IMG/VR virus record: IMGVR_UViG_3300031227_000031
DNA from: an uncultured virus (IMG/VR IMGVR_UViG_3300031227_000031)
Lineage: Duplodnaviria; Heunggongvirae; Uroviricota; Caudoviricetes
Length of the DNA: 20,000 nucleotides
Reading direction: 5' to 3' (one strand)
Both the position numbers and the translations under genes were made by a program. This document shows positions 326 through 20,000 of this stretch, in pieces. Under the pieces are notes generated by a model, which made no database searches, was not told the DNA's origin, and worked only from the letters and a program-made list of their open reading frames with translations. How positions within the stretch are numbered: position 1 is the stretch's first letter; every line of letters starts with the position of its first letter.

Positions 326-331
326 TAGATA

Positions 332-947: not shown

Positions 948-956
948 AACAACTCC

Positions 957-4936: not shown

Positions 4937-5587
4937 TTAAGCATTTCCTGCTCGTGGTTCATAAGATGACCACCGGCATTCTTTTAACTCCACTCCGGCG
5001 TGAAGAAGTTGATAGGCGATTAATTTCCTGCTTAAATTAGCGTTAGCAAACCGCATAAGAAAATAAAATTCGTAGTCGATCGTCAGGATCCCGGAAGGTG
5101 CGGCAGTAAAAGTCGCATATGATTTTTCTGTGCCGAAATTATTCGATAATGTGCCTGAGACTTCAACGCCGCCGACATAAAGCGTAAAATTTGTGCTGGT
5201 ATCAACAGGGAACTCATCAAGCAAGTACGTTGTTTCAACTCCATCACCGTTGCCTAATGACTCGCTTGTGACCTGGAACTCATGGTTGACTTTGCAAAGG
5301 AACGATTCGTATTGGCCTTTATGTGAAACATAAAAATCCCAGATCGTATTCATTTCGGACTGAGTATGATACTTTAGTTGTAATGAAAATGTGCGGAGAC
5401 CCACGTCCCATCTAGCATCTCGGCGCTCGCGTCCACTTTCAGATTTTGTCATTATAGTTTTGAATTCAATAGATTCATCCATATCGAATTCAGGGCTTAG
5501 AGTAAGGATATCGTTCGACAAAGTTGTGGTTGTTGATGTAGTCGAGGTTGTTGAAGTGGTCGAGGTCGAGGTTGTAGAGGTGCTCAT
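4937..5587 (-). CDS. Distal tail protein (DUF2460-like) with a 21-aa N-terminal Ser/Thr tract
   Basis: Motifs FKTIMTKSESGRERRDARW, DFYVSHKGQYESF, LGNGDG, FTAAPSG and EFYFLMRF; directly after the tape measure (ATGA overlap). Confidence 0.85.
   Translation of the reverse strand: MSTSTTSTSTTSTTSTTSTTTTLSNDILTLSPEFDMDESIEFKTIMTKSESGRERRDARWDVGLRTFSLQLKYHTQSEMNTIWDFYVSHKGQYESFLCKVNHEFQVTSESLGNGDGVETTYLLDEFPVDTSTNFTLYVGGVEVSGTLSNNFGTEKSYATFTAAPSGILTIDYEFYFLMRFANANLSRKLIAYQLLHAGVELKECRWSSYEPRAGNA
5522..5584 (-). repeat. Ser/Thr tract, 21 codons
   Basis: Direct translation; immediately after the start Met of the distal tail protein. Confidence 0.95.
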
Positions 5588-7623
5588 CCGAACATCCTTT
5601 TCATTGTGGCGTTATATACTCCGCCACGATTGTTCATCGATCGGCTATAAATGCCTTCAATAACATCCGGGTTCTGCGCCAAATAATCCCTAAACGATCG
5701 ATTATCTATGGCATTAATATTAAAGACGTTTACCACTTGTGGCCCCCCGCCCATTGAATCTCCGCGGTTTAAACGATGAAGATTATTGGAACCAAGATTT
5801 CGCATCCCGGTCCGGTTCAATACGCCTTCCCCATCTTCAAGCATTGCAGGAACAATTCCACCACCTTGAAACCGGCGCACAGGGCCACCGCCAAGATACC
5901 GGTTAGCTGTAACGGTGCCACCACCATGGTAAGCTTTTCCCGCAAACGCCCCGCCAAAAATAGAGCCTAACACCGCATGTGCGGCCATGTCTGTGAAAAT
6001 TTTTATGACAGTATTTCCAAACGCTGTAAAAGCATCAGTCAATTTATCAAGATCCCCCATGACAACATCGAAAAAGAGCGTGGACACATTTTGTCGTGCT
6101 GAATCAGCGAATTTTTTAACAGACAATTCCCAATCATAATTGACGATTTTCTTGAATTTATCTGTAAAGGTTTCTAGCCCCTTAATCAGTCCACCAGCAG
6201 GCCCGCCTTCTGCCCCAGTTTGTGTGTTTTTAGCTTTGTTCATTTTATTCTCAAATTTAGCGAAAATTTTATCTAATTTTTCAAAAGGAGCAATTAAGTC
6301 TTGCGTTATTTGTTCGCCTAATCCTATACCTTCGTCGGGGAATAGTTTGTTCAGCCTTTCCATTCCTTGTGAAACAACATTCTTGAAGAACTTATCCTGG
6401 AACTCTTCGCCCGCAGCTTTTCCCATTGCGCCACCGGCTGAGTACCCGGCAGCTTTCATGTCTGCTTGAAGTTTTTTAGCGAGTGGAGAATCGGGCGAAC
6501 TTAGTGTTTGTTTATAAATATCCCCAGCGTACTGTTTTGTAAAAGGTGATTGTCTATTCGCATTCCGCTGTATTTGTTCAGGAAGAGCAGCGGCGATTTC
6601 AGCAAAAACAGAAATAACCTGCATCCCCTTATATAAAGGATCTATAACATAATGCTTAAGGATAACTCCTACACCAATGCCAAACTTCATAACTCCGGCT
6701 AGGCTTTGGTTAAAATTCGCGGCTTCATCTCCGCCTTCTTTCAACGCATCGCCCATTTCTATAAACTTATTTTTGATTTCGATAATTGCAACGCGGACAC
6801 TCGGCGCCATAATTAAGAATAAACCAAGCCGTTTTTGCCAATCATCAAAGACGTTACTAAGCTGCGCCACGGCCCCGGCATAAGTATAAATATCTTTAGC
6901 GGCTTTCCCTCCATGCTGTTTGTTGATAGCTTTTAATAATGCTGCAAACTTTGCAGACTCTGGAATATTTTTAGCGATACTTGTCCCGTACCTCGACATT
7001 GCGCCAATGTATCCACCAAAGGCTTTAGCCGTTATTGCGACAGCAGATTTTAGATCCATTTTCATTGCAACGGCAAAATCAATGGTAGCTTGTGTTGCGG
7101 CTTTAAGGTTGTTGGCGGCACCTTTTCCACCCATGGCCAAAAGCATATCCATGGCTTCCATTACGTCTTCTTCGCCGAAACGTGAGGTTTTCTGCATTTC
7201 AGCGGCGAATTTCTGAAACTCTTTGGAAGATGATTTACTAAACTTCCCAACCTTTTTTAAAGAAATATTCAAACGCGCAATGGCGTCTTCAAACCGTTGC
7301 GCTTTCTGCGTGGCTTCTTTTGTGAATTGAATTAATGGCCGTAGGGCAAATACCCAGACTAAAATAAGGTTACGGATCCGACCGATTTGGCCAGCAAGTT
7401 TACCGACTTCAAACCCGAAGGTCCGGGCATGTCGGCCAGCTTTCGTCATGGATTTACCCATTTTATCAAAATCAAGGGCCATACCTTTCCCTTGTTTTTT
7501 GATCTCGACACCGGCTTTTTTTATAGCAGCAATTTGCTCTTTCGTCGCTTTGACGAATTTACCAGTCGCCGCATCCTTAAAAGAAAGGTATGTCACAAAC
7601 TTATTTATGGTTTCATTTCCCAT
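5584..7623 (-). CDS. Tail tape measure protein (about 679 aa)
   Basis: Long helical Ala/Lys/Gly-rich protein; C-terminal YHGGG...FQGGGIVPAMLEDGEGVLN and VNVFNINAID motifs like lambda gpH relatives; follows the chaperone pair. Start set at ATG 7623; the ORF track extends to 7641. Confidence 0.9.
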   Translation of the reverse strand: MGNETINKFVTYLSFKDAATGKFVKATKEQIAAIKKAGVEIKKQGKGMALDFDKMGKSMTKAGRHARTFGFEVGKLAGQIGRIRNLILVWVFALRPLIQFTKEATQKAQRFEDAIARLNISLKKVGKFSKSSSKEFQKFAAEMQKTSRFGEEDVMEAMDMLLAMGGKGAANNLKAATQATIDFAVAMKMDLKSAVAITAKAFGGYIGAMSRYGTSIAKNIPESAKFAALLKAINKQHGGKAAKDIYTYAGAVAQLSNVFDDWQKRLGLFLIMAPSVRVAIIEIKNKFIEMGDALKEGGDEAANFNQSLAGVMKFGIGVGVILKHYVIDPLYKGMQVISVFAEIAAALPEQIQRNANRQSPFTKQYAGDIYKQTLSSPDSPLAKKLQADMKAAGYSAGGAMGKAAGEEFQDKFFKNVVSQGMERLNKLFPDEGIGLGEQITQDLIAPFEKLDKIFAKFENKMNKAKNTQTGAEGGPAGGLIKGLETFTDKFKKIVNYDWELSVKKFADSARQNVSTLFFDVVMGDLDKLTDAFTAFGNTVIKIFTDMAAHAVLGSIFGGAFAGKAYHGGGTVTANRYLGGGPVRRFQGGGIVPAMLEDGEGVLNRTGMRNLGSNNLHRLNRGDSMGGGPQVVNVFNINAIDNRSFRDYLAQNPDVIEGIYSRSMNNRGGVYNATMKRMFG

Positions 7624-7930
7624 GACGTTTCTGCGCCTCAATTTTAGCTATTTCATCTTCAACAATTTCAAATGCTTCAATCAACTTTGCTGGCTGTTGC
7701 CCGGCATTTCCTGGAAACAACAATGCGTTGTTTTTATATTGCTGGTACCATCTAACATACATTACTGATAATGGCGTGACTGATTTTGCCGGACACTCTT
7801 TAAGTATTTCTCCATCAAGCTCAAATATATGCCCTTGTTTCATGGGGCATTTCATTGATTTTGGCAATCGTGGGTTACATTCGTGGCATTGAATCTTATT
7901 TTGTCTTACCCAGACTGCCCGTCGGAGTTT
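7613..7930 (-). CDS. Tail assembly chaperone frameshift extension (gpT-like part of a gpGT fusion)
   Basis: The -1 frame relative to 7906..8376, entered at the A AAA AAC site. Reads KLRRAVWVRQNKIQCHEC...LLFPGNAGQQPAKLIEAFEIVEDE..., stop at 7613. Confidence 0.75.
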   Translation of the reverse strand, partial: KLRRAVWVRQNKIQCHECNPRLPKSMKCPMKQGHIFELDGEILKECPAKSVTPLSVMYVRWYQQYKNNALLFPGNAGQQPAKLIEAFEIVEDEIAKIEAQKRHGK

Positions 7931-8376
7931 TTTTCTTCCTCCTCCGACATACCTGATAATTCCCAAATTTTACTTGACAACCAACGCAAAGCTTGCATCG
8001 GAATAGATTTGATGACGTCGTCTACTACAAAGTTTTGAGTAACTCCAAAAACCGTTTTATTCTCGGTTTTATACTCAACAGGTTTACCGTCACGATGATT
8101 AAACTTCTCAAACCCTTTCAGCCCAAGTTTAACGATAATAATATCTTGCTCAAGGTTAGATATTTTTGAATGGATATTGACTTTAACGTTTTCTGGGTTA
8201 GGCTTCTCGCCTTCTTTCACTTTGTCGTCGATGCTAACTTCTTGAACTACAATCTCCGCCATAAGTTGCGCTACGGTAACAGAGTCTAAACCCGTAATTT
8301 TCCATATTGTAGGATTGTTTTTATCCCACGGTAACGTTTCATTAATAATTTGACCAAATGCGACAGCGTTAATCAT
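7906..8376 (-). CDS. Tail assembly chaperone (gpG-like)
   Basis: ATG 8376 with a GGGGAGG SD; ends ...LSGMSEEEEKNSDGQSG, with the EKN slippery signature; lies upstream of the tape measure. Confidence 0.8.
   Translation of the reverse strand: MINAVAFGQIINETLPWDKNNPTIWKITGLDSVTVAQLMAEIVVQEVSIDDKVKEGEKPNPENVKVNIHSKISNLEQDIIIVKLGLKGFEKFNHRDGKPVEYKTENKTVFGVTQNFVVDDVIKSIPMQALRWLSSKIWELSGMSEEEEKNSDGQSG
7927..7933 (-). other. -1 programmed ribosomal frameshift slippery heptamer A AAA AAC
   Basis: Minus strand ATG TCG GAG GAG GAA GAA AAA AAC TCC is an X XXY YYZ heptamer in the correct phase near the end of the chaperone gene, with an open -1 frame beyond it. Confidence 0.8.
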
Positions 8377-8393
8377 TTTTTTCCTCCCCGATC

Positions 8394-8978
8394 TCAAAGC
8401 GGCGTAAGACCGATAGAGTCAGACCAATCAGAAGTGCTTTCTCCTGAAGACTGCAAAGCACTTGATGTTCCGAATTTACCGAATCTTAACTTCGCCTTTT
8501 TGAGACCTGCCTTTTTTATTTTGTTATTAATCCACCTGAAAGTATCAGATCGAAGCCGGCGTGCCGTTCGATCACTTATGCCAATAAACATCCGGCGTAC
8601 ACGTGTTTTTCCTGCCCCTTCCTGCTGATGAATTATACCCAGCAAATCGCGTGGCGGGGATCCTTCAGACTTAACCCCTGCGGCCCATACTCCTTTACCG
8701 ATTTTCCAGGAACTTATAGCCCGGAACATCTGCCCGGTATTCCACAACGGGCGCGTGGCCATCTGCGGACTACTGGCCGTTTTTTTCTTACGTCGAATCG
8801 TTGATGGCGCCAACGCAGTCATCCGCCCTCCACGAAGGTCCTGACTATTCCGGATCCGTTTCTTTCCTTCATCAGCAACCTTTTTTGCCAATGATTTCAG
8901 TAAAGCATCCGGTTTATCAAGACCTTCGAGTTTAGGAACATACTCCGCAGTTATTCCGAACTCAAATTCACTTGGCAT
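8394..8978 (-). CDS. Virion morphogenesis / tail completion protein (Mu gpG, P2 gpS-like)
   Basis: Motifs ALAPSTIRRK, PLWNTGQMFRAIS, GIIHQQEG and RRMFIGIS. Start reassigned to ATG 8978, 1 nt after the tail tube stop (TAATATG). Confidence 0.75.
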   Translation of the reverse strand: MPSEFEFGITAEYVPKLEGLDKPDALLKSLAKKVADEGKKRIRNSQDLRGGRMTALAPSTIRRKKKTASSPQMATRPLWNTGQMFRAISSWKIGKGVWAAGVKSEGSPPRDLLGIIHQQEGAGKTRVRRMFIGISDRTARRLRSDTFRWINNKIKKAGLKKAKLRFGKFGTSSALQSSGESTSDWSDSIGLTPL

Positions 8979-8979
8979 A

Positions 8980-9987
8980 TTACGTAGTCGTGGTTGTGGT
9001 CGACGTCGAAGTTGTGGTTGTCGTAGTTGTGGTCGTACCAGCAAAGGTTATTGTTAACTCATCGTTCCCGGCCGTAGAGTTTTTATTGGCCTCCATTGTC
9101 GCGCTGTATGTACGAATACCTTCACGGTCATTCTGACTCAGCCCGGTGAACGCAGTTTTTGGCAACGCAATTGTGCAAATCGAATCATCGCTTGATTGAA
9201 GAATAATACTGATTGCAGCTTCAGTGCTTACCTTCAATCTATTAAAGAAATCAAAATCAGCAACGAGTTGCTGTTCCGGGTCCAAAGTTACGATCGGATC
9301 CCGGCCAACAATCATCGCATGCAGAATGCCGGTTTCGTCTTGCGGTTTTGGCCGATAAATGATTTCGTTTTGCATATTAATTTCCATATTCTGAATAAGC
9401 ATCGGCGAACTATGAACCGTGAACGTCGCGTTCTGGAAGATAAACGGTTTTTCATCTTCCGGTTCAGGGCTCGGCATAGACTCATCTTCATGTGTTGAAT
9501 ATTTACCCATAAACGTATACTCAACCATCACGGATTCACCAACAACAAAAATGAACCTTGCGTTGCCCATGGCACCCGCCAAGACTTTCTTCATTCCGTC
9601 TTCCCAAACAGCAATGGTGATTGTTTCCATAAGCGCTAATGTGGAAATCGGCGCATAAGCCGAAGACGTGCTGCCGCTCAATGATTCATCAAGCCCACTA
9701 GCCTGCAAGTACGGACCGTTAGACGGAGACTCCCCTATATTTGCAATCGGCGGTGCCATAAGTTCAGCCCGGAACGTCAATTCAGCAAGATGCTGCCCCG
9801 TAAGCGACGCATGGCGTGATAATGATGCCGTAAACGGATTACGCTTAAACTTTGCCGGATTGAATTCAAATGCTGGCTCATACGCTAAAATTTTAGCTTG
9901 TCCGGCGCCAACAGTTATCGCCGTGCCTTTTGTTGATTCCAAACGGCCACCAACGTGTATTCTTCTTGTGATCATACCTCCAGCCAT
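8980..9987 (-). CDS. Major tail (tube) protein with an 18-aa C-terminal Thr/Ser tail
   Basis: 335 aa, strong SD AAAGGAGG, beta-rich tube-like motifs (ESTKGT, LQASGL, GAMGN, DREGIRTY, GNDELTITF); follows the tail terminator; no sheath gene in the module. Confidence 0.8.
   Translation of the reverse strand: MAGGMITRRIHVGGRLESTKGTAITVGAGQAKILAYEPAFEFNPAKFKRNPFTASLSRHASLTGQHLAELTFRAELMAPPIANIGESPSNGPYLQASGLDESLSGSTSSAYAPISTLALMETITIAVWEDGMKKVLAGAMGNARFIFVVGESVMVEYTFMGKYSTHEDESMPSPEPEDEKPFIFQNATFTVHSSPMLIQNMEINMQNEIIYRPKPQDETGILHAMIVGRDPIVTLDPEQQLVADFDFFNRLKVSTEAAISIILQSSDDSICTIALPKTAFTGLSQNDREGIRTYSATMEANKNSTAGNDELTITFAGTTTTTTTTTSTSTTTTTT
8983..9036 (-). repeat. Thr/Ser tract, 18 codons (T9-STS-T6)
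   Basis: Direct translation; C-terminus of the tail tube protein. Confidence 0.95.
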
Positions 9988-10002
9988 TTTACCCTCCTTT
10001 TA

Positions 10003-10449
10003 TCAAAAGACGTTTCTGTCTCTTATGGTTAACCTTATTTCATATTTATGGCAAAGAATGTTTCCAAACATCCCCAAAACAATATCAGCCTCAATGGGAT
10101 ATTGCACAACTTCAGCGGTGTTGTTTAACTGGTCGTTCCCGCGGAATACTGCAATTATAGAAACAACGAGGTCTTCCACGGTTTTTGCCGTTTCATCCTC
10201 GTCTTTAAGCCCGTAAGCGCCTTCAATAACAAAATTAAAAGCATTCCGGGCGGTGCTATTGCTTCCATGAACAATTTCGCTCAAACTGTTCAAGGAAAAT
10301 TGGATAAAATTTATTTTGTCACTATCCTCAAAAGCATCTTTATAGGTAGACCACTCTTTACTATACCGCTTGTAATCATGGACTTGGCCAATACCACTGA
10401 CGCCCTCAAGAACAGTTTTTAGCGCTGTTCTGATGTTGGTGAGGGACAC
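10003..10449 (-). CDS. Probable tail terminator protein
   Basis: 148 aa, GTG start, IRTALKTVLEGVSGIGQVHDY N-terminus, alpha/beta pattern; directly upstream of the tail tube. Confidence 0.65.
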   Translation of the reverse strand: MSLTNIRTALKTVLEGVSGIGQVHDYKRYSKEWSTYKDAFEDSDKINFIQFSLNSLSEIVHGSNSTARNAFNFVIEGAYGLKDEDETAKTVEDLVVSIIAVFRGNDQLNNTAEVVQYPIEADIVLGMFGNILCHKYEIRLTIRDRNVF

Positions 10450-10503
10450 GTTATCGCCGCCTTTTTGTGTGCCGGGAGAAAACTACAATCGCTGGCGCCG
10501 GCA

Positions 10504-10752
10504 TTATTTTGTAATACGATCAATTTGTTTTTCGTTGGTTTTGATTTTTTGCTCAATGCACGAAAGTCTCCGTTCATAGCCGACCTCAAGATCTTGATGA
10601 TGAAATAAATGATTTGTAAAATGCGCATCAAGTTTTGCAACATCTGTCTTTATGTCGGTTAAAATGAAAAGAGCAATCGTAATCAGTACTGGCGTAATAA
10701 GTCTAAACATTTGCGTAAAGTCCTCAACGAATCGTCGAAAGTTTTCATGCAT
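10504..10752 (-). CDS. Small protein with one predicted transmembrane helix and a coiled coil (possibly holin-like)
   Basis: 82 aa; hydrophobic LITPVLITIALFIL followed by a heptad-like charged tail; fits the operon packing. Confidence 0.55.
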   Translation of the reverse strand: MHENFRRFVEDFTQMFRLITPVLITIALFILTDIKTDVAKLDAHFTNHLFHHQDLEVGYERRLSCIEQKIKTNEKQIDRITK

Positions 10753-10760
10753 CAGGGTTA

Positions 10761-11540
10761 TTACCTATTCTCGCTTGGATGGGTTAAGTAATCTGATTTC
10801 CAACTAAACGTCAGATCCATGTCAGCGAATGCAATTGCCCCGGCTTTTTCTTCACCGGCCCCGCCTTTGACATGGCTCTTGTACTGCCCATAATAAAGCT
10901 CGGCTAAATCCCTGTAATCAGCCGATTTTGCTGAATAATTCACAACATCCGCATCGACACTCGGTTCACTTGTTTGTGCGTATTTTGCTGATAAAGCCGA
11001 GCAACAAAAAGCCGTAGCCAACGCAGCCACAGCTTCAATGTCATTCTCGGGTACAGTGCATTCAGACTCAGAAACAACATGAGGAAGAAGATAGACATAT
11101 CGGAAAGTGTACCCGGATGCCGGTTTAAACGTTAGGAACCTTAAAACATTGCCACTTGCTTTTTTATAAATAATCCAATCATTGCCATCAACATACTGAG
11201 GTGTTTGTATATCTGAGCGAATTGGATATTCAATTCTGCTGATTATCTGAGAAAACTTATCTACCCATCCATCAGGAAAATCAAAGTCGTAGGTTGAACC
11301 ATCCGCGTCGGAATTTTCGTGGACTTGTTCTTGCGGTTTATCATTTGAATAAACACGAACAGCACGTTTTAATGATAATTCAATCTCGTTTGGTTTAAGG
11401 ATTTCTGAATCGTCTTGAAGATTAAAATTAATCCGACTTCGGATATCTTCAATGGAGGGGGATTGGAGAGTCGTAGATGTCGACGTCGTGGAAGTGGTCG
11501 ACGTAGTCGTGGTCGAGGTGCTCGTAGTAGACGTCGACAT
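10761..11540 (-). CDS. Head-tail adaptor/connector with a 23-aa N-terminal Ser/Thr tract
   Basis: SD AAAAGGAGG. Helical N-terminal part (IEDIRSRINFNLQD...EIELSLKRAVRVYS), central beta region, then VAALATAFCC...ADVVNYSAKSADYRDLA; position after the capsid genes. Confidence 0.7.
   Translation of the reverse strand: MSTSTTSTSTTTTSTTSTTSTSTTLQSPSIEDIRSRINFNLQDDSEILKPNEIELSLKRAVRVYSNDKPQEQVHENSDADGSTYDFDFPDGWVDKFSQIISRIEYPIRSDIQTPQYVDGNDWIIYKKASGNVLRFLTFKPASGYTFRYVYLLPHVVSESECTVPENDIEAVAALATAFCCSALSAKYAQTSEPSVDADVVNYSAKSADYRDLAELYYGQYKSHVKGGAGEEKAGAIAFADMDLTFSWKSDYLTHPSENR
11469..11537 (-). repeat. Ser/Thr tract, 23 codons
   Basis: Direct translation; immediately after the start Met of the adaptor gene. 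Confidence 0.95.
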
Positions 11541-11552
11541 TCACGCCTCCTT

Positions 11553-11933
11553 TTAAGTCAAATAAAGGTATAGCCGCGCTCCAGCGCTTATGCTAACGAC
11601 TTGAAGATCATGCGCAGGCACTGGGCGTACTAAAGCCGGTCCATTAACATTGTTCCCGGATACGGAAAGATCGCCCGCTTTTGCTTGCCAAAACTCTTGA
11701 TTTGTGCTTTTTTGTCTTATGAACACGGAATCAACGTCATTGGCAGCAAAAAAACAAAAACCGGAAATCATATACGTTTTATGCTTATACGACGCTGGAA
11801 TGATATCGCCGGTCTTCGTTATTACGAGAGGGTTCCCGATGGTCTGGATTCCGGTCGTAGTAGTCGAACTCGAAGTTGTTGACGTTGTCGAAGTCGTCGA
11901 GGTCGTTGAGGTTGAAGTCGAGGTTGTAGACAT
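11553..11933 (-). CDS. Probable virion structural protein with a 26-aa N-terminal Ser/Thr tract
   Basis: 126 aa; small beta-rich domain ending GARLYLYLT; lies between the head accessory genes and the adaptor. Confidence 0.6.
   Translation of the reverse strand: MSTTSTSTSTTSTTSTTSTTSSSTTTTGIQTIGNPLVITKTGDIIPASYKHKTYMISGFCFFAANDVDSVFIRQKSTNQEFWQAKAGDLSVSGNNVNGPALVRPVPAHDLQVVSISAGARLYLYLT
11853..11930 (-). repeat. Ser/Thr tract, 26 codons
   Basis: Direct translation; immediately after the start Met of 11553..11933. Confidence 0.95.
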
Positions 11934-11956
11934 TAATTATTCCCCCACGTAAAGGG

Positions 11957-12409
11957 TTAAGTTGTCGTCGTTGTCGAGGTCGTCGAAGTTGTCGAGGTCG
12001 TCGAAGTTGTTGACGTTGTCGAAGTCGTTGAAGTCGTCGTTGTAGATGTCGATTCAGTTCCTGCTGGATCCACTCCAACAACCTGCCAATATGTTCCGTC
12101 GCATTTAAAAATAGCCGCCTGCAACGGCGCAAATGAAACAGTGTCGTAACTCGCACCGCCACCATTAAACCCGGCCGCAACATAAACATCATTGGTTGAC
12201 GATGTCGCATGAATGCTAGCGATGATTATTTCAACGCCTTTATACACCGTAGACGCCACAGGTAAGGTTAAGGTAACGTTTTCCCCAGTGATGCGGAAAA
12301 CTTTATAATTCATTAATTCGGTTTCAGTTAAAGCTACTGATGTAGCTTTATCGACGGAAAGCTCATGATCCCGCAGCCCGTGAGGGAAACGTGTATTTCT
12401 CGATAACAT
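11957..12409 (-). CDS. Probable head decoration/fibre protein, paralog B, with a 31-aa C-terminal Ser/Thr tract
   Basis: SD GGAGG. TLTLP.AS...G...CDGTYW beta-domain pattern seen in phage fibre and decoration proteins. 61 of 118 identities, ungapped, to 12432..12794 by hand count. Confidence 0.65.
   Translation of the reverse strand: MLSRNTRFPHGLRDHELSVDKATSVALTETELMNYKVFRITGENVTLTLPVASTVYKGVEIIIASIHATSSTNDVYVAAGFNGGGASYDTVSFAPLQAAIFKCDGTYWQVVGVDPAGTESTSTTTTSTTSTTSTTSTTSTTSTTSTTTTT
11960..12052 (-). repeat. Ser/Thr tract, 31 codons (STSTTTT-(STT)6-STTTTT)
   Basis: Direct translation; C-terminus of 11957..12409. Confidence 0.95.
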
Positions 12410-12431
12410 TTTATTCCTCCCGGTTTATTTT

Positions 12432-12794: not shown

Positions 12795-12809
12795 TATTTC
12801 CTCCCGTGG

Positions 12810-12846
12810 AAAAAAGGCAGGAAGGGTTTGACCCCGCCCTGCCTTT
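12810..12846 (-). terminator. Rho-independent terminator after the major capsid gene
   Basis: Minus strand AAAGGCAGG-GC-GGGGTCAAACCC-TT-CCTGCC-TTTTTT: GC-rich hairpin followed by 6 U, 17 nt after the capsid stop. Confidence 0.75.
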
Positions 12847-12863
12847 GGATTTTATGGCTTTGG

Positions 12864-15584
12864 TTAAACGATGCCAGCGGCATAGGCGCGGTAATCAGGC
12901 ACACATCCGCCATACTCGTGACGGACTTTATACCGAATCGTATCCGCAGTGAACACGTTGCCAACCGTGGGCTGATCCTGAACCAATATTTCAGGAATTT
13001 CTTTACCATTTAAAAAGCCAATCTCGATAGGATCGACTTCATCAGTGAAGCTGAGGTAATAGTTGTTTTCGTCACCTCGCAGGTACGGGCTAACCCGAAG
13101 ACTAGCAGCACCTTTCAGCACGTTCACGGCATTTTCACCGCTTTCCGGATGAAGCGTTGACAATAACAACTGTTCCGCTAATCCTTTCAAGGTTCTTGGT
13201 ATCCACAACTTCGGCTTGGATAACCCGAGGAACCGTGAACTCTTTGTAACAACGGGGTAATTATCGCCACTCTTATCATGCGCAGCAGCCGTTGTCCCGA
13301 ACAGCCCGCGGGTAACGGTTAAAACATCCGTAGCAACAACGTCAACCCGGATAAGCTCGCCATCGATTTTAATAACATCACCGGCTTTGATGTACGTTCC
13401 CGTTCCGCCAGTAACATTAATCGTGGTTGCATCCGAGGTCAATGTGTTATCGGCCGTTGCAGTTTTGTACCCATCCTCTATTGTATAATAGCAATAGTTT
13501 AATAACGTCTGCAAGGAATCATACCCTAAAGCAGTCGTTGAATAATTTTGATGGTAGATGTCAAACAGGTTGATGCCAGCGGCTACTGCATATTCATCTG
13601 CCCAATTAGCACCAGTATTAATCCCACTGGCGGAAGTAAAATCCATCATCAGATCAAATGCGAACTGATTCAAGGTTTCTTCAGCGGAACGAGCCAACTT
13701 TTGCGGGACTTTTTTCAACTGACGAAGATCGTCGTTGATGATTGACCGGCGGGTGATCGTTAACATACCACCTTTGGTCGCGATCCCATAAGCTTGCTCG
13801 GTATCCACCGGGTATCCCAATTCGGGATAAGACGGCGATGCCGTATCCGTTGGGGTTCCCTGCGTAGTTCTTGCAGCAATAACCGTTGGCAAAACACCAA
13901 ACCCGCCCCAACGAATGAGTTCCTGCATTTTGAAGTCTTTGACAGAAACTTTTTGCGCAATTTCCTTCCACATATGCGGAAGACCCTTATATTCCTTCAA
14001 CATGCGCCGGTTGATGGTATACCCGAGCATGTACGAAAAACTGGAAGATGTCACGGCTTCTTTCAACTTCGATCTTGGAAGTAAACCTGTGACTTCAGTA
14101 TCACCGGTAATAGCCACATAAGCTTCCCGGATACTTTCAAACGGCTCAACACCTTCATAATCCGCTTTTTCTTTTTCATCAGGTTCGTGGTCAAACGTCA
14201 AATCCAAGGATGCCTGCAACCGGTCACTACCGGTCCGGCCAACACGGATCTCTGCCGTCTGCCCATCACCGAGATCGATAATGTCGCCACTCTTAGATAA
14301 CGCAGCCAAAACATCCTTCTCAGAACGAATTGATTCTTTGATGGATGTTTCATTGATAATCTGGCCCTCAAAACCTTTACGAAGTTTTTCCCGTACGGGA
14401 TTCGGAAGGTTAGAAGCGTCAAGCTGTGCACTAAGAACAGCACGACTTTCAGCGATTTTTTGGGTCTTGATGATGTCATCAACTTTGGTCTCCAGATCCT
14501 TATTTTTCTTTTCAGCTTCCTTGGTCCGCTTTTCAGCTTCCTGAACGCGCTTCTCAGCTTCAGGATCCTTATTATCTTCTTTTTTCTTTTCAGGCGTGGA
14601 TTCTTTCACCCACTTTTGTAACAACGCGGTAGCCAAAGGAAAACTCTTGTTTTTAACCAACGTGGAAACTTGCTCCAACATTTTTTTACCTTTAGCGGCA
14701 AGCGCAAGTTTGGACTCTTTGGCTGAAAATTCGTCAATAGCCTTGGTCGCAGCTTCAATTGCGACATCGAGTTCAGCTGCCTCTTTTTCTTTGGCTGCAT
14801 CAGCCACGTCTTCGGCTTTTTTCTTATCTTCTTCAGCCACCGTTTTTTCCTCTTCAGCTTTTTGATGAAGATCATCAGCTTCTTTCATCAATTTACCCAT
14901 GATCTCAGAAACCTGATCTTCAGTAATATTTTTAACGTCAACGCCCCCAAGAAGCTCCGGTCTTGATTCCTGGATGATTTTGATTAATTTTTCAAACATA
15001 TCAGTTGACCTCCTCTCAGCTTCGTTATAGCTGGAAAGTAATTTTAGAAATCCGCCACCCGCTGCCGGGTGTGTTACCAAATCAACACTAAAAACGTTCT
15101 CGATACTATTAACAAGCTGAACTGGCCGGCCACTTAAGAGTTGTAAACTCTGTTCCCCATCAGCATTTATGGATAAACCTAAGACTTTTTTAACACCTTT
15201 GTCCCAGGCTGAAGTAAGGAGATCTTTAAGCCACGTAGAACCTTTAGAAATATTCAAGGTCCCGGTCAGGCCAGAAACTGATTCACCATCGCGGTTAACA
15301 GATTCATACTTGATGTCAGTAAGAAAACCCGCGGTATTCTTAGGGAACCCCTCGGGCCTCATTTCTTCTATTTTATCAGGGAGATGATCGAAGTGTTTAC
15401 TCTTGAACTCATAAAACATAACCTTCGCATTTTCAAAAAGATTGGAAGCGGCCTGAAGAACTTTTCCAGGATAATATTTCCCGTTCTTAGAAAGGCCCTC
15501 CTCAACAATCATGACTCGCCATTGATCACCATTGATTGACTCAAGTAATCTTAGCGCTTGAATTTGGAAAAACTTTTTTCTCAT
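12864..15584 (-). CDS. Prohead protease-scaffold-major capsid protein fusion (HK97 fold, Mu gpT-like capsid part)
   Basis: Residues 1 to about 185 are protease-like (GLSKNGKYYP, HFDH, GLSINADG, SVDLVTHPAAGGGF). About 196-450 is a Lys/Glu coiled-coil scaffold. The remainder is capsid-like (VKDFK, TKGGMLTITRRSIINDDL, GFLNGKEIPEI, YKVRHEYG...DYRA). Confidence 0.9.
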   Translation of the reverse strand: MRKKFFQIQALRLLESINGDQWRVMIVEEGLSKNGKYYPGKVLQAASNLFENAKVMFYEFKSKHFDHLPDKIEEMRPEGFPKNTAGFLTDIKYESVNRDGESVSGLTGTLNISKGSTWLKDLLTSAWDKGVKKVLGLSINADGEQSLQLLSGRPVQLVNSIENVFSVDLVTHPAAGGGFLKLLSSYNEAERRSTDMFEKLIKIIQESRPELLGGVDVKNITEDQVSEIMGKLMKEADDLHQKAEEEKTVAEEDKKKAEDVADAAKEKEAAELDVAIEAATKAIDEFSAKESKLALAAKGKKMLEQVSTLVKNKSFPLATALLQKWVKESTPEKKKEDNKDPEAEKRVQEAEKRTKEAEKKNKDLETKVDDIIKTQKIAESRAVLSAQLDASNLPNPVREKLRKGFEGQIINETSIKESIRSEKDVLAALSKSGDIIDLGDGQTAEIRVGRTGSDRLQASLDLTFDHEPDEKEKADYEGVEPFESIREAYVAITGDTEVTGLLPRSKLKEAVTSSSFSYMLGYTINRRMLKEYKGLPHMWKEIAQKVSVKDFKMQELIRWGGFGVLPTVIAARTTQGTPTDTASPSYPELGYPVDTEQAYGIATKGGMLTITRRSIINDDLRQLKKVPQKLARSAEETLNQFAFDLMMDFTSASGINTGANWADEYAVAAGINLFDIYHQNYSTTALGYDSLQTLLNYCYYTIEDGYKTATADNTLTSDATTINVTGGTGTYIKAGDVIKIDGELIRVDVVATDVLTVTRGLFGTTAAAHDKSGDNYPVVTKSSRFLGLSKPKLWIPRTLKGLAEQLLLSTLHPESGENAVNVLKGAASLRVSPYLRGDENNYYLSFTDEVDPIEIGFLNGKEIPEILVQDQPTVGNVFTADTIRYKVRHEYGGCVPDYRAYAAGIV
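14997..15014 (-). promoter_or_regulatory. Internal in-frame ribosome binding site and ATG (scaffold-capsid start)
   Basis: AGGAGGTCAACTGATATG: AGGAGG lies 9 nt before the in-frame ATG at 14999 (MFEKLIK...), at the protease/scaffold boundary. Confidence 0.65.
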
Positions 15585-15604
15585 AAAAAATCCCTTCTAT
15601 ACTA

Positions 15605-15634
15605 AGTATAAGCATGCCATAGCAATAAAGTCAA
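15605..15634 (-). promoter_or_regulatory. Sigma70-like promoter upstream of the protease-capsid gene
   Basis: TTGACT (15634-15629), 18-nt spacer, TATACT (15610-15605), in the AT-rich 67-nt gap between portal and capsid genes. Confidence 0.55.
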
Positions 15635-15651
15635 CCAAAATATAACTTTTT

Positions 15652-17106
15652 TTATTCTTCTTCTGTTTTTTCGTCTTTTTCTTCATCCTTTTTCTTTTTC
15701 TTATCATCTTCAATAACTTCATCAGAGCCGTCAGCCGAGGGCGCTTTTTTGTAGTTTTTCTGTTCCCGGCTTATTTGCTCGAGTTCTTGAATGTCCACAC
15801 CAAGATCCGTCATAAACGTATGGAACGACCGTTTGGCCGTATCCGGGCGAATCCACTCATTATCGACTGCCGTTTTCATAGCGCTGGAAAATTTATCCAA
15901 AGAATTAGCCATTGACTGTGCATCCCTTGAAATAATCGGAGATGGGAAAACAGCAAATGCGCAATCAGTGTTCTTGTCCAACATCCCGTGTATAATCTTT
16001 TGATCAAGCACAAACCTGAAAATACGCATAATAATATTCTTAAAGTACCGTTGCCGCGAACGAAGATGCTTCAATGTCGGTGCGGACATCGCTACAGCCG
16101 TAGCCCTTGTCGTGTTTTCGCCTTCACCAAACCAGTGCCCCGGGAACCCCGCGCCACCAAGAATCTGATTGCGGAACATTTTAGCCTCGTTTGAGGCATC
16201 GTCTGATTCAAGCTTTGAAGAAATGATGTTCCATTTTATCTTTTCATTATGAATACGCATTGATCCGGGTTTAGGCGCACGAAGATTTTTTGCGAATTCT
16301 TCAATCTCTTTTTTGCCCATGCCTTCACACAACACATCCCAAACAAATGTGTTAAGGTAAAATGCTCGTTCAAGCCTGGCAAAAAGAAATTGGTTGAATC
16401 CATCAATCCAATCGGCTAAACATAAAAGATCCGATCGCCCACGGCTTGACCAGGCAACCTTGTTGACTGCGAAATAAAAACATTCACCCATCAGCCGGCC
16501 ATGCGTTGAAGATCGTTTCGCGTTGTCTGCCCGGACAACTTTGAGTTTATATTTTTTTCGCCGTTTTTCCCATTCAACATATTCCGCTTCTTCTGGGTTG
16601 TCTTTATCCTGCTTGATTTTAGTGATCACTCCGGGATCAAGGTACCCCAACTTGACATCGCCGTTATATTTATTCACAAAAACGGGGTAACATTGTTCAC
16701 CCCAGAGCCCTAACTCTAAGGCCTTATCTCCTTGTTTCATTTCCCAATTATTATCAGGATCATTCCAAAAATTCATGAGGATATCTTGCACTTTTGGATC
16801 CTTGGCCATAAATTTAAACCCATCGCCAACAACAAAAGATCGCATGATCTCAAGAATCCGGTGCGCTAACGGATCTGAATCGTAAAGGTAAAAAGCGATC
16901 TCCTGCATCCGCGATTGGACCAGCACGTTCAGGTCCCGGTTAACGGTCTCCGTTAAACTCCGCCACCCCACATCTTCAGATCGTGGGTTTCCTACACTTG
17001 GCGTAGCTTCAATCAAGAACGCTTGTTTGACTTCCCCTTTAACTGAAGCAATGGATTCTTTAATTTTACTTCGTGGTGACTTTTTTGTAGATGTTTTTAC
17101 CGCCAT
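15652..17106 (-). CDS. Portal protein
   Basis: 484 aa after terL; motifs LYDSDPLAHRILEIMRSFVVGDGF, LWGEQC, SRGRSDL and GFPGHWFG...TTRATA; charged C-terminal tail. Confidence 0.9.
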   Translation of the reverse strand: MAVKTSTKKSPRSKIKESIASVKGEVKQAFLIEATPSVGNPRSEDVGWRSLTETVNRDLNVLVQSRMQEIAFYLYDSDPLAHRILEIMRSFVVGDGFKFMAKDPKVQDILMNFWNDPDNNWEMKQGDKALELGLWGEQCYPVFVNKYNGDVKLGYLDPGVITKIKQDKDNPEEAEYVEWEKRRKKYKLKVVRADNAKRSSTHGRLMGECFYFAVNKVAWSSRGRSDLLCLADWIDGFNQFLFARLERAFYLNTFVWDVLCEGMGKKEIEEFAKNLRAPKPGSMRIHNEKIKWNIISSKLESDDASNEAKMFRNQILGGAGFPGHWFGEGENTTRATAVAMSAPTLKHLRSRQRYFKNIIMRIFRFVLDQKIIHGMLDKNTDCAFAVFPSPIISRDAQSMANSLDKFSSAMKTAVDNEWIRPDTAKRSFHTFMTDLGVDIQELEQISREQKNYKKAPSADGSDEVIEDDKKKKKDEEKDEKTEEE

Positions 17107-18731
17107 ATTGAACTCCTTCGTGGTATTCTGTGCGTACTGAGCACCTTTTGTAAATGAACTGAATATGGTCTCACAACCCCAGGCATCTCCGCTTGAGGTT
17201 TTTCTTTGTTTTTTTCTTTGTTTTCTTCCTTATTTTCTTCGACTCCATCAACATTGCCGAGAGAATCAACGGAAATATTAATCATTTCACCAGACAATAA
17301 AGGGTATAGCCAACAAACAACATATTCAAAAGCGTTTACTTTGTGCGTTGACCAATCATCGTTATGGTCGGTCCCCTGCCGGTTAAGATGAGAGTACGCT
17401 ATGGCTTTTGAAAATTTGTCACAACGGGAAGATACCTGGATTTTCGGCAGCCCGTCAACCCTGGCTTTCAGCACGGTTTTAATTGTCCGTCGTTTTTCTT
17501 CATTGGTCCCGATATTTTTTGTGCGAATAATAAGGTGTCCCCCAGAAACCGCGGAGTACTCTTCAATAACTGAACGTTTCGATGTTCTGTCACGGCGATG
17601 CCCATGATGATGATCGCCGATTGCTAATATATCAGATATTTTTCCTGTATATCTTATATCTTGTAATATCTTTAAGAAGTTACGATAATGCTCTTGAGTT
17701 AAGAGATTCTTTTGCTCATAACACCACAACATAAAAAGCCGGTCTTTTTCATCTTGCTGTAAGAACTCAATGACTTCGCCTTCAAGCCCGAAATCAAAAC
17801 CAAGAATTAATGGATGTTTTGGATTATAATAGAAATTGCGACTTGATCGGTGGATATCATCAGACCATTCAATATAAGATTTTTCAGATTTTGTGCGATC
17901 GTATTTTATTTCAAGCTCTTGATTAACTTCTTCTTCCGTCATTGTTGCTGTTTTCTTCTTAAACCAGCCCTCATCCTTTAAAGGATGCTCAGACCAATGA
18001 AATTTCATGACCTTAAACCCACCACGGTCAAGCGTAAGCTCCCTCAACTCAACGTATTTATTTTCTTGCGCGTCTTCTGGCGGTGTCGAGTTTACTAAAA
18101 CAGAATTCGTACACGATCGCACAGCTTTCCACATCTCACGAAAAACATCAATATGCGCTGCTTCATCAACGAATACAAACTTATATTGCGTATCGCGACC
18201 AGCATTCTTATTCGCGGATTCACCTTTAATAACAGAACTCGTTGCTAAAACGTGGAATGTTAAAAACGGGGTATGCGTGCGAAGTTTAAATTCGGGGGGA
18301 AGATTTCTATACATAAAATGTACCCGGCCGATTAAAGAGTGGTATGTGCATCCGCTATCCTGCACCTCATTTTCTTTACGAGAAATGTTTAATGATGTGA
18401 AGTATTCCGTAAAAAGCGCCTGGTGTAACTGAAACGCCATTACCACCCAGCTTATTCCCATATCGCGAGACTTCTCACTGAAAACGTCGCCAAACTTAAT
18501 CAATTCCGCGAGCAACCGTTTTTGGTGTGGCCAAAGCACGAAATTAGCAATACGTTCTTTTTCCGGTCTATGTGGCATAAAAACTTTGCAGTGTTTCTCA
18601 ATAAACCGTTCTGGATCCTCTTTACACATCTGCCATTCCCGGATCCAAAAACGCCGTTTATCCTGAGCTTGCTGCACTCCGGATATCTTCAGCACTGAAG
18701 ACTTCAAGTTTTCTTGTTTCCCGTTTTTCAA
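17097..18731 (-). CDS. terL: Terminase large subunit
   Basis: Adenine-binding LWPHQ, Walker A-like EKSRDMGISW, Walker B FVFVDEAAH, coupling motif NSTP, nuclease GFDFG. Start uncertain (TTG 18731 overlaps terS by 74 nt; GTG 18677 is an alternative). Confidence 0.95.
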   Translation of the reverse strand: MKNGKQENLKSSVLKISGVQQAQDKRRFWIREWQMCKEDPERFIEKHCKVFMPHRPEKERIANFVLWPHQKRLLAELIKFGDVFSEKSRDMGISWVVMAFQLHQALFTEYFTSLNISRKENEVQDSGCTYHSLIGRVHFMYRNLPPEFKLRTHTPFLTFHVLATSSVIKGESANKNAGRDTQYKFVFVDEAAHIDVFREMWKAVRSCTNSVLVNSTPPEDAQENKYVELRELTLDRGGFKVMKFHWSEHPLKDEGWFKKKTATMTEEEVNQELEIKYDRTKSEKSYIEWSDDIHRSSRNFYYNPKHPLILGFDFGLEGEVIEFLQQDEKDRLFMLWCYEQKNLLTQEHYRNFLKILQDIRYTGKISDILAIGDHHHGHRRDRTSKRSVIEEYSAVSGGHLIIRTKNIGTNEEKRRTIKTVLKARVDGLPKIQVSSRCDKFSKAIAYSHLNRQGTDHNDDWSTHKVNAFEYVVCWLYPLLSGEMINISVDSLGNVDGVEENKEENKEKNKEKPQAEMPGVVRPYSVHLQKVLSTHRIPRRSSIWR

Positions 18732-19170
18732 CTTGACCCCCTAATAAATAAATCTCAAGCTTCATTAAACGTTCAAGCGTCGTATATGATGCTTTTTCCC
18801 TTATATTTCCCTTCTCAAGCTCTTCTTTGACTTGATCAATTGCCGTATGTACCATGTCTAAAAACTCGCGCCGGCGCTCAATTAAATCAACATTGAACTC
18901 TTTGGTGACGGAATCCTGAAACATCAACAAGCGGACCTTCAACGGGCGGATCCCGCGACGATCGTCACCTTTTTCAAAATACTTCTTAGCCGTATCATAA
19001 CACATTTCTGTATTCTTTGCGGCCTCACGTAATTGTTCACCTTCAGTTAACCGCTTATAAAGCTCGTCAATCTTTTCTTGCGGGATCTGATAGCGATACC
19101 CATACATCCTGTGAGGCTTCGGTTTCCGCAAATTCGCAAGCGAATTCGGGTTCGTTTGTTTTTTTCCCAT
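18658..19170 (-). CDS. terS: Terminase small subunit
   Basis: NPNSLANL N-terminal motif, HTH-like LREAAKNTEMCYDTAKKY, helical oligomerisation region; directly upstream of terL. Confidence 0.75.
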   Translation of the reverse strand: MGKKQTNPNSLANLRKPKPHRMYGYRYQIPQEKIDELYKRLTEGEQLREAAKNTEMCYDTAKKYFEKGDDRRGIRPLKVRLLMFQDSVTKEFNVDLIERRREFLDMVHTAIDQVKEELEKGNIREKASYTTLERLMKLEIYLLGGQVEKRETRKLEVFSAEDIRSAASSG

Positions 19171-19469
19171 TATTGAGCCACCTTCTTTCTGACCACGTAA
19201 TTAATTACACCCGTGATTTTATCCGCACCGGAATCGTATTCAGCCGTGAAAAATAACCGATAAATCCCTGCCCGCAATAAAGTGAGTTTATGATAAATCT
19301 GCGTACCTGAAATACTGGCAGCAGTTTCCGCTAAAAACGGCTTTGGTGTCCGGCCGTGCTCAAGTACCCTTATTTTCGCAGTTCCTGTATCCGGTGTTTG
19401 AGCGACACCATCAACTTTAAACGCCCCACGAAAGGTTCTAACATCGTTTTCATAATACACATGTTTCAT
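19170..19469 (-). CDS. Small Ig-like / BppU N-terminal-like protein
   Basis: 99 aa, all-beta pattern with AGIYRLFFTAEY; SD GAGGTG; stop overlaps the terS start (TAATG). Confidence 0.55.
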   Translation of the reverse strand: MKHVYYENDVRTFRGAFKVDGVAQTPDTGTAKIRVLEHGRTPKPFLAETAASISGTQIYHKLTLLRAGIYRLFFTAEYDSGADKITGVINYVVRKKVAQ

Positions 19470-19478
19470 TTTTACACC

Positions 19479-20000
19479 TCACCATGTATCAGGATCATCT
19501 TCTGTCTGATCCTCGAATTTATATAATTTTGTATCATTATAAAACTTAAAGTTTTCCGTATAATTTTCAAATTTTAAGTATTCAGTCTCATCTTTAAATT
19601 CGGGGGCGAACGGTAACGTCGTTGTCGTTGACGTTGATGTCGTGCTAGTTGACGTCGTTGACGTCGTTGACGTCGTGCTCGTCGATGTGGATGTCGTCGA
19701 CGAAGTCGATGTAGAACCTTCTTGCGTTGTTGACGTTGTTGACGTGCTTGTGGTCGATGTCGTGCTCGTTGACGTAGTTGACGTAGTTGACGTAGTTGAC
19801 GTAGTTGACGTCGAAGTTGTTGATGTCGTCGATGTGGTTGAGGTAGTGCTAGTCGTGCTCGTTGACGTCGTTGACGTGGTCGAAGTCGATGTTGTTGAAG
19901 TCGTCGATGTTGTTGAGGTAGTGCTAGTCGTGCTCGTCGATGTGGTTAATGTTGTCGAAGTCGATGTTGTTGAAGTCGTCGATGTTGTTGAGGTAGTGCT
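19479..20000 (-). CDS. Ser/Thr-rich (mucin-like) protein, C-terminal part; start lies outside the window
   Basis: Not in the ORF track. 173 codons with no stop, then TGA at 19479-19481. Reads [T/S tract]...TTTTLPFAPEFKDETEYLKFENYTENFKFYNDTKLYKFEDQTEDDPDTW*. The stop overlaps the SD of the next gene. Confidence 0.85.
   Translation of the reverse strand, partial: STTSTTSTTSTTSTSTTLTTSTSTTSTTSTTSTTSTTSTSTTSTTSTSTTSTTSTTSTTSTTSTSTTSTTSTTSTTSTSTTSTTSTSTTSTTQEGSTSTSSTTSTSTSTTSTTSTTSTSTTSTSTTTTLPFAPEFKDETEYLKFENYTENFKFYNDTKLYKFEDQTEDDPDTW
19617..20000 (-). repeat. Low-complexity Ser/Thr-coding tract with internal duplications
   Basis: 124 of 128 codons are Thr or Ser (exceptions L, Q, E, G). A 9-nt unit (gttgacgta) repeats about 4 times near 19768-19810. 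A 47-nt exact repeat at 19879-19925 and 19954-20000 gives a 75-nt period. Confidence 0.95.

Follow-up and report, generated by a model that had tools for sequence, protein, structure and literature searches.

To our knowledge, glycosylation of phage particle proteins has been shown for only a few mycobacteriophages, and the virions of mycobacteriophages Che8, Corndog, and Myrna are reportedly O-glycosylated (said to be the work of Freeman et al. 2023, Cell Host Microbe). In Gram-positive cocci, serine-rich repeat glycoproteins such as GspB, Fap1, and SraP are O-glycosylated on very long Ser-rich tracts by soluble cytoplasmic enzymes prior to export, namely, GtfA/GtfB and further glycosyltransferases (GTs), including members of GT8. 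According to excerpts of two papers, mycobacteriophage capsid and tail-tube subunits carry C-terminal glycans made by phage GTs (PMC12619734, PMC12363180). The C-terminal immunoglobulin (Ig)-like domains of the T5 pb6, lambda gpV, and SPP1 tubes are described in part of another source as peripheral, dispensable decorations with a proposed contact to carbohydrates (PMC5717097). Here, a 20,000-nt stretch (hereafter, the window) of the 73,234-b contig of an uncultured virus (IMG/VR record IMGVR_UViG_3300031227_000031) was analyzed. The window holds the packaging-head-tail module of a siphophage, with all genes on the minus strand, and six of these genes encode pure Ser/Thr (S/T) runs of 21, 18, 23, 26, 31, and 74 residues (Table 1). 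The tracts are kept in relatives next to large sugar-enzyme islands, which indicates that the particle is probably sugar coated, and on balance it is probable that the tracts are O-glycan acceptor tags that would give the virion a glycan brush.

The arrangement resembles those of Che8, Corndog, and Myrna in its phage-encoded GTs (here in relatives), in the putative C-terminal acceptor on a siphophage tail tube, and in the proposed shielding of the surface. However, the major capsid protein of the window has no tract (longest S/T run, 4 residues), whereas the capsid C terminus is also an acceptor in those phages. The present case also differs in that long pure S/T runs occur on no fewer than five different virion proteins and on a mucin-like giant, in that each of the two tract types has its own island, and in that the islands are far larger (12 to 13 kb, with at least five transferases). 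Likeness to the serine-rich repeat glycoproteins lies in the long Ser-rich tract (at least 128 aa in the window gene and approximately 850 of 973 residues in the protein of a relative, virus record G005) and in a GT8-like enzyme of the poly-Ser relatives. Unlike those glycoproteins, the proteins considered here have no signal peptide or LPXTG motif, the C terminus is a triple YxF-type repeat, and the tracts lie on virion proteins. In addition, no Pfam matches to the GtfA/GtfB pair, to accessory Sec components, or to a cell-wall anchor were found in 80 open reading frames (ORFs) of relative G002 or 76 ORFs of G005, and membership in the serine-rich repeat glycoproteins is not supported.

The original prediction placed pure S/T tracts at six sites, and all of them are present on the coding strand. 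The tract of the S/T-rich gene, which is cut by the window end, has at least 128 residues and is broken only by L and QEG, with 74 residues as its longest pure run. Among the 22 ORFs examined, the remaining ones, including those of the terminases, portal, capsid fusion, chaperones, tape measure, hub, and tip, contain no pure S/T run longer than 5 residues, in agreement with the earlier statement that the terminases, portal, chaperones, and tape measure are tract-free. Ser and Thr together account for 13.5% of the residues outside the runs, at which 6267 aa would be expected to contain 1e-12 runs of at least 18 residues, and the longest S/T run in 2000 shuffles of all residues never exceeded 8; a chance origin of the tracts is excluded. 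Each N-terminal tract begins at an ATG with a Shine-Dalgarno-like site upstream (AAGGAGG, GGGGGA, and AAGGA), and the tracts are translated. All four Thr codons are used in the tracts (36/26/43/57), together with the Ser codons TCA, TCG, and AGC, and the periodicities that Tandem Repeats Finder detected in the tract DNA were all imperfect and in frame (9 to 75 nt). Selection acts on the tracts at the protein level, and they are not a simple DNA repeat.

An AlphaFold2 model of the 335-aa protein, built from a 19-sequence alignment, had a predicted local distance difference test (pLDDT) score of 74, and its 18-aa tract was disordered (pLDDT <50). The model matched the P74-26 tail tube (Z 23.6, VIA, 8ed0_A; 292 aligned residues; root mean square deviation, 4.0) and T5 pb6 (Z 22.6 for 9iny_A and Z 21.9 for 7qg9_A; VIA), Foldseek gave an E value of 7e-12, and the ortholog in relative G013 matches Pfam Phage_tube_2. 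By its predicted structure, the 335-aa protein is a tail tube of the T5 pb6/P74-26 type, with a duplicated tube domain in one chain. Model residues 6 to 318 align with pb6 residues 5 to 358 (7qg9_A), and pb6 residues 375 to 462 form a peripheral Ig-like domain according to part of the source (PMC5717097). No such C-terminal domain is present in the 335-aa protein, whose chain ends in the disordered tract. The tract thus occupies the position of the pb6 Ig-like domain and therefore probably points outward, which favors, for this subunit, the original prediction that the tracts face the exterior. As in the Ig-like decorated tubes of T5, lambda, and SPP1, the attachment is at the C terminus of the tube fold and at the tube periphery, but the folded domain is replaced by 14 to 40 aa of disordered S/T sequence. 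Orthologs of the tail tube occur in 33 loci including the window; all 31 complete ones have the terminal tract, and the remaining two are truncated where their loci end. In 19 of 19 distinct tail tubes, the tract starts immediately after the same conserved GNDE-x5 strand.

The N-terminal tract of a second protein lies on a member of Pfam DUF2460 (E 3.4e-18; 66.3 bits versus a cutoff of 30.4), a family that we take to be the distal-tail-type protein of gene transfer agent-like tails. The gene begins within the last bases of the tape-measure gene, downstream of an AAGGA site. The DUF2460 tract is N-terminal in the window and in G015, internal in G002 and G003, and C-terminal in poly-Ser relatives, and the tag is therefore portable, as had been proposed. 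The N-terminal tract of the 259-aa protein is present in all five (STT)n-type members of its family and in none of the 16 others. The window protein has no match to Pfam SU10_adaptor, which is matched by 4 of 21 family members (best E, 8.9e-5), and it is weakly identified as a head-tail adaptor. The earlier labels of tail tube and distal tail protein are thus supported by the structure match and by Pfam, respectively, and that of the adaptor only weakly; the label of head accessory paralog B for the 150-aa protein is provisional.

The 150-aa and 126-aa proteins had been counted as two of six unrelated tract carriers. In G002, G003, and locus L068, their counterparts are encoded by one gene with an N domain, an internal tract of approximately 146 aa, and a C domain, and the 126-aa protein shares 45% identity (BLASTP) with the C-terminal part of the 399-aa protein of G002, which has an internal 146-aa tract. 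The split in the window consists of a TAA, a GGGGGA site, and an ATG. The two genes are halves of a gene that is fused in relatives; therefore, six genes do carry tracts, but these represent five independent protein sites. The 150-aa protein and the corresponding N domain gave an ESM Atlas lead to clusters of phage depolymerase C-terminal beta-sandwiches (features 0.96), a lead only toward a small beta-sandwich-like protein. In G012 (L110:17558-18736) and G014 (L116:13235-14389), the fused accessory protein bears a galactose-binding-like F5_F8_type_C_2 end on a poly-Ser stalk of approximately 100 aa, which is possibly a carbohydrate-binding head.

The S/T-rich, mucin-like protein ends in a C-terminal module of approximately 40 to 45 aa (window positions 19482-19616) with three xFKDxTxxYKF-like repeats. 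The module is kept in both tract types (G005, G006, G014, G013, G002, and L032), has no family match, and may anchor the protein to the virion. The poly-Ser counterpart in G005 (46145-49066; L082:6145-9066) has 973 aa, approximately 850 of them Ser. A single F, L, or Y breaks its Ser run, most often every 15 residues or so, which implies a repeat unit of approximately 45 nt. The contigs of G002, G003, G015, and G014 break inside this giant S/T gene.

A portal search yielded 303 homologs, 26 of which were aligned for a search that led to 69 viral loci, including many near-duplicates (L039-L049 and L067). Tracts were found in 46 of the 69 loci, with 40 being poly-Ser and 6 being (STT)n, and of the 23 tract-less loci, 14 have a length below 10.2 kb. 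Each of the 220 tracts is on the gene strand. The closest relatives have (STT)n tracts and the more distant ones poly-Ser. A quick portal tree of 50 distinct rows (L032 and L068 left out; support from the Shimodaira-Hasegawa-like approximate likelihood ratio test only) grouped all 24 poly-Ser rows and five (STT)n rows in one 37-row clade with a support of 99. The eight tract-less rows inside this clade are loci of 4.2 to 8.4 kb, and the 13 rows outside it are tract-less. A search of metagenome contigs with the small terminase gene (terS) added 12 loci, none closer than 57%, and 10 of the 12 have an S/T tract ORF upstream of terS; a search of viral contigs with the large terminase gene (terL) returned no relative. 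The switch between Ser and Ser/Thr preserves the hydroxyl, which is what an O-acceptor needs. No description of poly-Ser or Ser/Thr homopolymeric tags spread over phage virion proteins was found in the literature searched, in line with the original prediction, whose author knew of no such phage.

The closest complete relative is G002 (63,263 b; CheckV completeness, 100%), whose core proteins are 52 to 64% identical to those of the window (portal, 62%). Its island (49.9 to 63.26 kb, approximately 13 kb) encodes a sulfotransferase, an RmlD-like protein, a GT1/GT4 enzyme, four GT2 enzymes, a 4,6-dehydratase, a DegT aminotransferase, two CmcI-type methyltransferases, and a 322-aa GT-B-like protein, and RmlA-like and RmlB-like genes lie after the tail module, outside the island (80 ORFs scanned). 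The contig begins with the ST-rich gene and ends within the island, so that adjacency in G002 is inferred from the two ends, and the island appears to precede the ST-rich gene. In L032, a single contig carries, in order, a GT-B-like gene (55% to that of G002), a GT2 gene (67%), an ORF combining a 20-aa ST tract with the triple repeat, and the genes of the 99-aa protein, terminases, and portal, and L199 repeats this order with direct adjacency on another contig. No multi-pass membrane protein was found in the G002 or G005 island by a simple hydropathy scan, and no Pfam matches to Wzx, Wzy, or undecaprenyl-phosphate transferases were found in G002 (80 ORFs) or G005 (76 ORFs). The lack of multi-pass membrane proteins and of a lipid-linked pathway fits direct, stepwise glycosylation of proteins in the cytoplasm, and this fit is one reason to consider the tracts as O-acceptor tags. 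In the 80 ORFs of G002, neither a thymidylate-synthase-like hydroxymethylase nor a kinase was matched. Inteins were observed in the same genome: the 4,6-dehydratase (L079:3217-5289) holds one (Intein_splicing and LAGLIDADG_3), the last GT2 (L079:10569-11264) appears to run into one (homologs cover approximately 80%, one with a Hint domain), and a free-standing LAGLIDADG gene lies in the head module (L076:10969-11268).

At the corresponding site, the poly-Ser relatives G004, G005, G006, and G012 carry another kind of island, with 3 to 5 Methyltransf_24 genes and a GT9-like fusion. Its conserved core consists of 280-aa, 345-aa, 591-aa (fusion), and 226-aa proteins, and BLASTP matches to the G002 island are limited to the dehydratase and aminotransferase types. 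Scans of G004 and of G006 to G014 covered ORFs of at least 140 aa lying wholly within the stretches analyzed, with 27 of 42 such ORFs scanned against Pfam in G013, 18 of 47 in G006, and 11 island ORFs in G004; 76 ORFs were scanned in G005. The G005 genome contains four or five Methyltransf_24 genes, LicD, a cytidylyltransferase-like gene, an epimerase/dehydratase, and six ORFs without a Pfam match. An epimerase/dehydratase is also present in the G004 island, and the combination of LicD and cytidylyltransferase is, among these four, restricted to G005. In G012, a Glyco_transf_9 segment lies within an 835-aa methyltransferase fusion. The related but different island of G013 encodes DegT, an epimerase/dehydratase, methyltransferases, and a 912-aa relative of the fusion, and in G011 the sugar island ends in a 447-aa GT2 directly preceding the poly-Ser protein. 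The 345-aa core protein is GT8-like by ESM Atlas (features 0.97; TM 0.60-0.65 to Glyco_transf_8 clusters), and one of its structural neighbor clusters carries Gtf3_N. Profile searches of the PDB yielded, for island protein A3, nothing beyond methyltransferase matches and a faint GT9 match and, for A4 and A6, chance-level rows alone (E 0.3-0.9).

In every tract-bearing record that spans the region, the sugar island adjoins the S/T-rich gene. The relatives G007, G008, and G009 have no tracts and no sugar-related Pfam matches among 31, 33, and 33 ORFs of at least 140 aa, respectively; their tail tube is also of another, longer kind, their replication genes differ, and G008 and G009 have terminal repeats. 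The co-variation of tracts with modifying enzymes that the original prediction called for was thus observed across the relatives, and its glycosylation interpretation is partly supported by this comparative evidence. Beside the MuF-like gene of the tract-less G009, a 1292-aa protein (L096:2500-6378) has a D12 DNA methyltransferase domain and falls just below threshold for the anthrax lethal factor N/C domain of Pfam (26.8 bits versus 27.4); it is possibly a virion protein that is ejected and that includes a metalloprotease-like region.

The cytoplasm is the sole compartment in which phage particles assemble. In the proposed pathway, the tracts would be disordered, surface-exposed acceptor tags on siphophage virion proteins, namely, the C terminus of the tail tube, the N termini of the adaptor-like and distal tail proteins, the split beta-sandwich accessory protein, and the long mucin-like protein with its C-terminal anchor module. 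Soluble phage-encoded enzymes would make activated sugars in the cytoplasm of the infected cell and transfer them onto the Ser/Thr hydroxyls of the tracts, and the attached sugars would then be methylated and/or sulfated, such that the assembled particle would end up with a dense O-linked glycan brush. The island enzymes would accordingly be the ones acting on the tracts, the phage of the window would have such enzymes itself, and the brush may serve shielding, adhesion, or colloidal stability. A wider version of this proposal is only tentative. It envisages a clade-wide mucin-like coat with a matched acceptor code, in which (STT)n tags would be served by the island with GT2, GT-B, 6-deoxy-amino-sugar, and sulfo-methyl functions and poly-Ser tags by the island with the GT8-like enzyme, the GT9-methyltransferase fusion, and, in some, LicD. 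Tract dialect and glycan chemistry would have co-evolved, and a Ser or Ser/Thr protein of up to approximately 1000 residues, fixed by its C-terminal triple repeat (approximately 40 aa), would form a virus-borne mucin fiber.

Several results weigh against glycan acceptor tags. No modifying enzyme was found in the window by Pfam or PHROGs, as the original prediction had already noted, and two GT2 families of G002 were not found on any contig of 73,234 b, the length under which the window portal was listed, among the best 120 of 197 matches to one family and all 19 matches to the other, with intein-bearing or longer forms lying outside the searched lengths. A generic GT2 is no predictor of tracts: among 73 loci retrieved with a G002 GT2 family (902 kb, mostly unrelated phages), only 3 have a tract, and L125, with a 38% GT2 homolog, has none within 10 kb. 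The idea that any phage GT2 goes with tracts was rejected on these counts, which show that tracts are rare in phage DNA generally and that GT2 alone does not predict them. In the poly-Ser relatives G005 and G006, no Pfam glycosyltransferase was found at E 1e-4 or 1e-5, and the GT8-like call comes from the Atlas alone; the 345-aa protein (A2) had no match in PDB sequence-profile searches, and its AlphaFold2 model was poor (pLDDT 52). G010, a 36.6-kb fragment without the virion module, encodes two sulfotransferases and a CmcI-type methyltransferase and has no tract. Of the two terS loci lacking an upstream tract ORF, L207 has no upstream region and L205 has no tract within 10 kb of terS. Because the tract-bearing portals all fall in one clade, the co-occurrence of enzymes and tracts is close to a single evolutionary event and rests on essentially one gain. 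Finally, the tract is an interdomain linker in the fused relatives, a role that needs no modification.

This last point leads to the main rival, which is rather unlikely but the strongest of the alternatives: the tracts would be unmodified, flexible hydrophilic spacers or entropic bristles that hold domains off the particle or prevent sticking, and the islands would serve another purpose. The tract joins two folded domains in G002, G003, L068, and many poly-Ser relatives, the distal domain in G012 and G014 is the galactose-binding-like F5_F8_type_C_2, and tract length is very variable, from 14 to 40 aa on the tube to approximately 850 aa in the giant protein. Polyserine linkers are reported from bacterial carbohydrate-active enzymes (PMC2386152, PMC2699552); those of Saccharophagus and Teredinibacter likewise join folded domains by homopolymeric Ser, a layout shared with the fused accessory proteins of the relatives, but they belong to secreted bacterial enzymes, whereas the present tracts belong to virion proteins and are also free termini. 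Indeed, the tail-tube, adaptor, and distal-tail tracts are free ends without a distal domain, and a spacer role hardly accounts for a 973-aa protein in which approximately 850 residues are Ser and only some 64 are not. The linkage of the S/T-rich gene to islands in every spanning record and the absence of islands from the three tract-less relatives also count against unmodified spacers.

Modification of the tracts by host enzymes, or with a nonsugar group such as phosphate or a phospho-alcohol rather than by phage GTs, is improbable. G005 and G011 have LicD-family and cytidylyl/nucleotidyl-transferase genes, which suggest that phospho-alcohols or phospho-sugars are transferred in some relatives, and no enzyme is visible for the phage of the window within its 20 kb. 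However, classical GT2 and GT-B genes lie right at the ST-rich gene in the closest relatives, and none of the 80 G002 ORFs encodes a recognizable kinase. Still less probable is that the islands modify phage DNA or the host surface and are only incidentally linked to the tracts. DNA glycosylation and host serotype conversion are frequent roles of phage GTs according to an excerpt of one source (PMC12619734), but the hydroxymethylase, Wzx/Wzy-type, and multi-pass membrane protein searches of G002 and, for the latter two, G005 were negative, and in records of both tract types the islands have the same orientation as the S/T-rich gene and directly adjoin it where the structural operon begins. An explanation at the DNA level, by slippage-prone contingency repeats or assembly artefacts without a protein role, is very improbable despite the imperfect periodicities of the tract DNA and the contigs that break inside the giant gene, given the mixed synonymous codons, periods that are all multiples of three, 220 of 220 tracts in frame on the gene strand of independent contigs, and the constant placement of the tract behind a conserved strand in 19 distinct tail tubes; an assembly artefact or pure DNA repeat was ruled out on the first three of these grounds.

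The genes of the window run from the open S/T-rich gene through the 99-aa protein, small terminase, large terminase, and portal to the 906-aa capsid fusion, followed by small proteins of 120, 150, 126, 259, 82, and 148 aa, the 335-aa tail tube, and the neck/tail-completion protein, and end with two chaperone-like ORFs, the 685-aa tape measure, the DUF2460 protein, the BR0599 hub, and the 1033-aa tip protein (Table 1). The longest S/T runs of the head and packaging genes (12864..19469) are 1 to 4 residues, and the 120-aa paralog of the 150-aa protein serves as an internal tract-free control. A listed ORF at 8394-9044 begins at a TTG inside the tail-tube tract DNA and there reads another frame as an Arg/Gln/Pro-rich peptide; the true start of the neck/tail-completion gene is likely the ATG at 8978, directly after the tail-tube stop. 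Virus record G001 is identical to window positions 1-17041. Its 1.3 kb past window position 1, which includes L001:133-417, completes a 305-aa fiber-like protein and contains two small ORFs, one hydrophobic and possibly holin-like, with no sugar gene reached.

Table 1. Tract-bearing and tract-free genes of the 20,000-nt window
Feature	Coordinates	Strand	Tract or basis of assignment
DUF2460 distal-tail-type protein	4937-5587	-	Residues 2-22 (N-terminal), 21 S/T, at 5522-5584
335-aa tail tube protein	8980-9987	-	Residues 318-335 (C-terminal), 18 S/T, at 8983-9036
259-aa adaptor-like protein	10761-11540	-	Residues 2-24 (N-terminal), 23 S/T, at 11469-11537
126-aa protein	11553-11933	-	Residues 2-27 (N-terminal), 26 S/T, at 11853-11930
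150-aa protein	11957-12409	-	Residues 120-150 (C-terminal), 31 S/T, at 11960-12052
120-aa paralog of the 150-aa protein	12432-12794	-	Tract-free (longest S/T run 3); internal control
S/T-rich (mucin-like) protein, 3' part, open at window end	19479-20000	-	(STT)n tract 19617-20000
Protease-scaffold-capsid fusion (906 aa, Phage_capsid_4)	12864-15584	-	Pfam/PHROGs; tract-free
Portal	15652-17106	-	Pfam/PHROGs; tract-free
Large terminase	17097-18731	-	Pfam/PHROGs; tract-free
Small-terminase-like protein	18658-19170	-	Pfam/PHROGs; tract-free
Conserved 99-aa protein	19170-19469	-	Tract-free
Neck/tail-completion protein	8394-8978	-	Tract-free
Tape measure (685 aa)	5584-7641	-	Tract-free
BR0599 hub	4058-4936	-	Tract-free
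NlpC/P60 + Phage-tail_3 tip protein (1033 aa)	957-4058	-	Tract-free
Two chaperone-like ORFs	within 957..8978	-	Tract-free

Some further features of the clade were observed. The records G002, G003, G005, G010, G012, and G014 share an AEP-type primase (AEP-TOTE and PriCT_1), an SNF2 helicase, ParB, and Pam3 gp33/gp34-like proteins, and some GT homologs and Atlas neighbors are labeled cyanobacterial. The GT labels and the Pam3-like replication proteins give a weak hint of a cyanobacterial host; a host scan of genome contigs returned only two contigs of metagenome-assembled genomes. Inteins (LAGLIDADG, HNH, and intein-splicing Pfam matches) are common in the portal genes of the clade, including P0005, P0007, P0008, P0014-P0016, and others. 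The portal of L032 (L032:6795-8291) is interrupted after a conserved TTRA motif, and that of the window is intein-free.

If the tracts are indeed O-glycan acceptor tags, homopolymeric Ser/Thr tags with an adjacent enzyme island would provide a search signature for such systems, and the tags together with their enzymes could become a portable handle for the glyco-engineering of phage particles. It would also mean that a widespread environmental phage clade spends a fifth of its genome on sugar-coating its tail tube, neck, tail tip, and a mucin-like fiber, with consequences for the ways in which phages escape recognition, adhere to surfaces, or remain dispersed.

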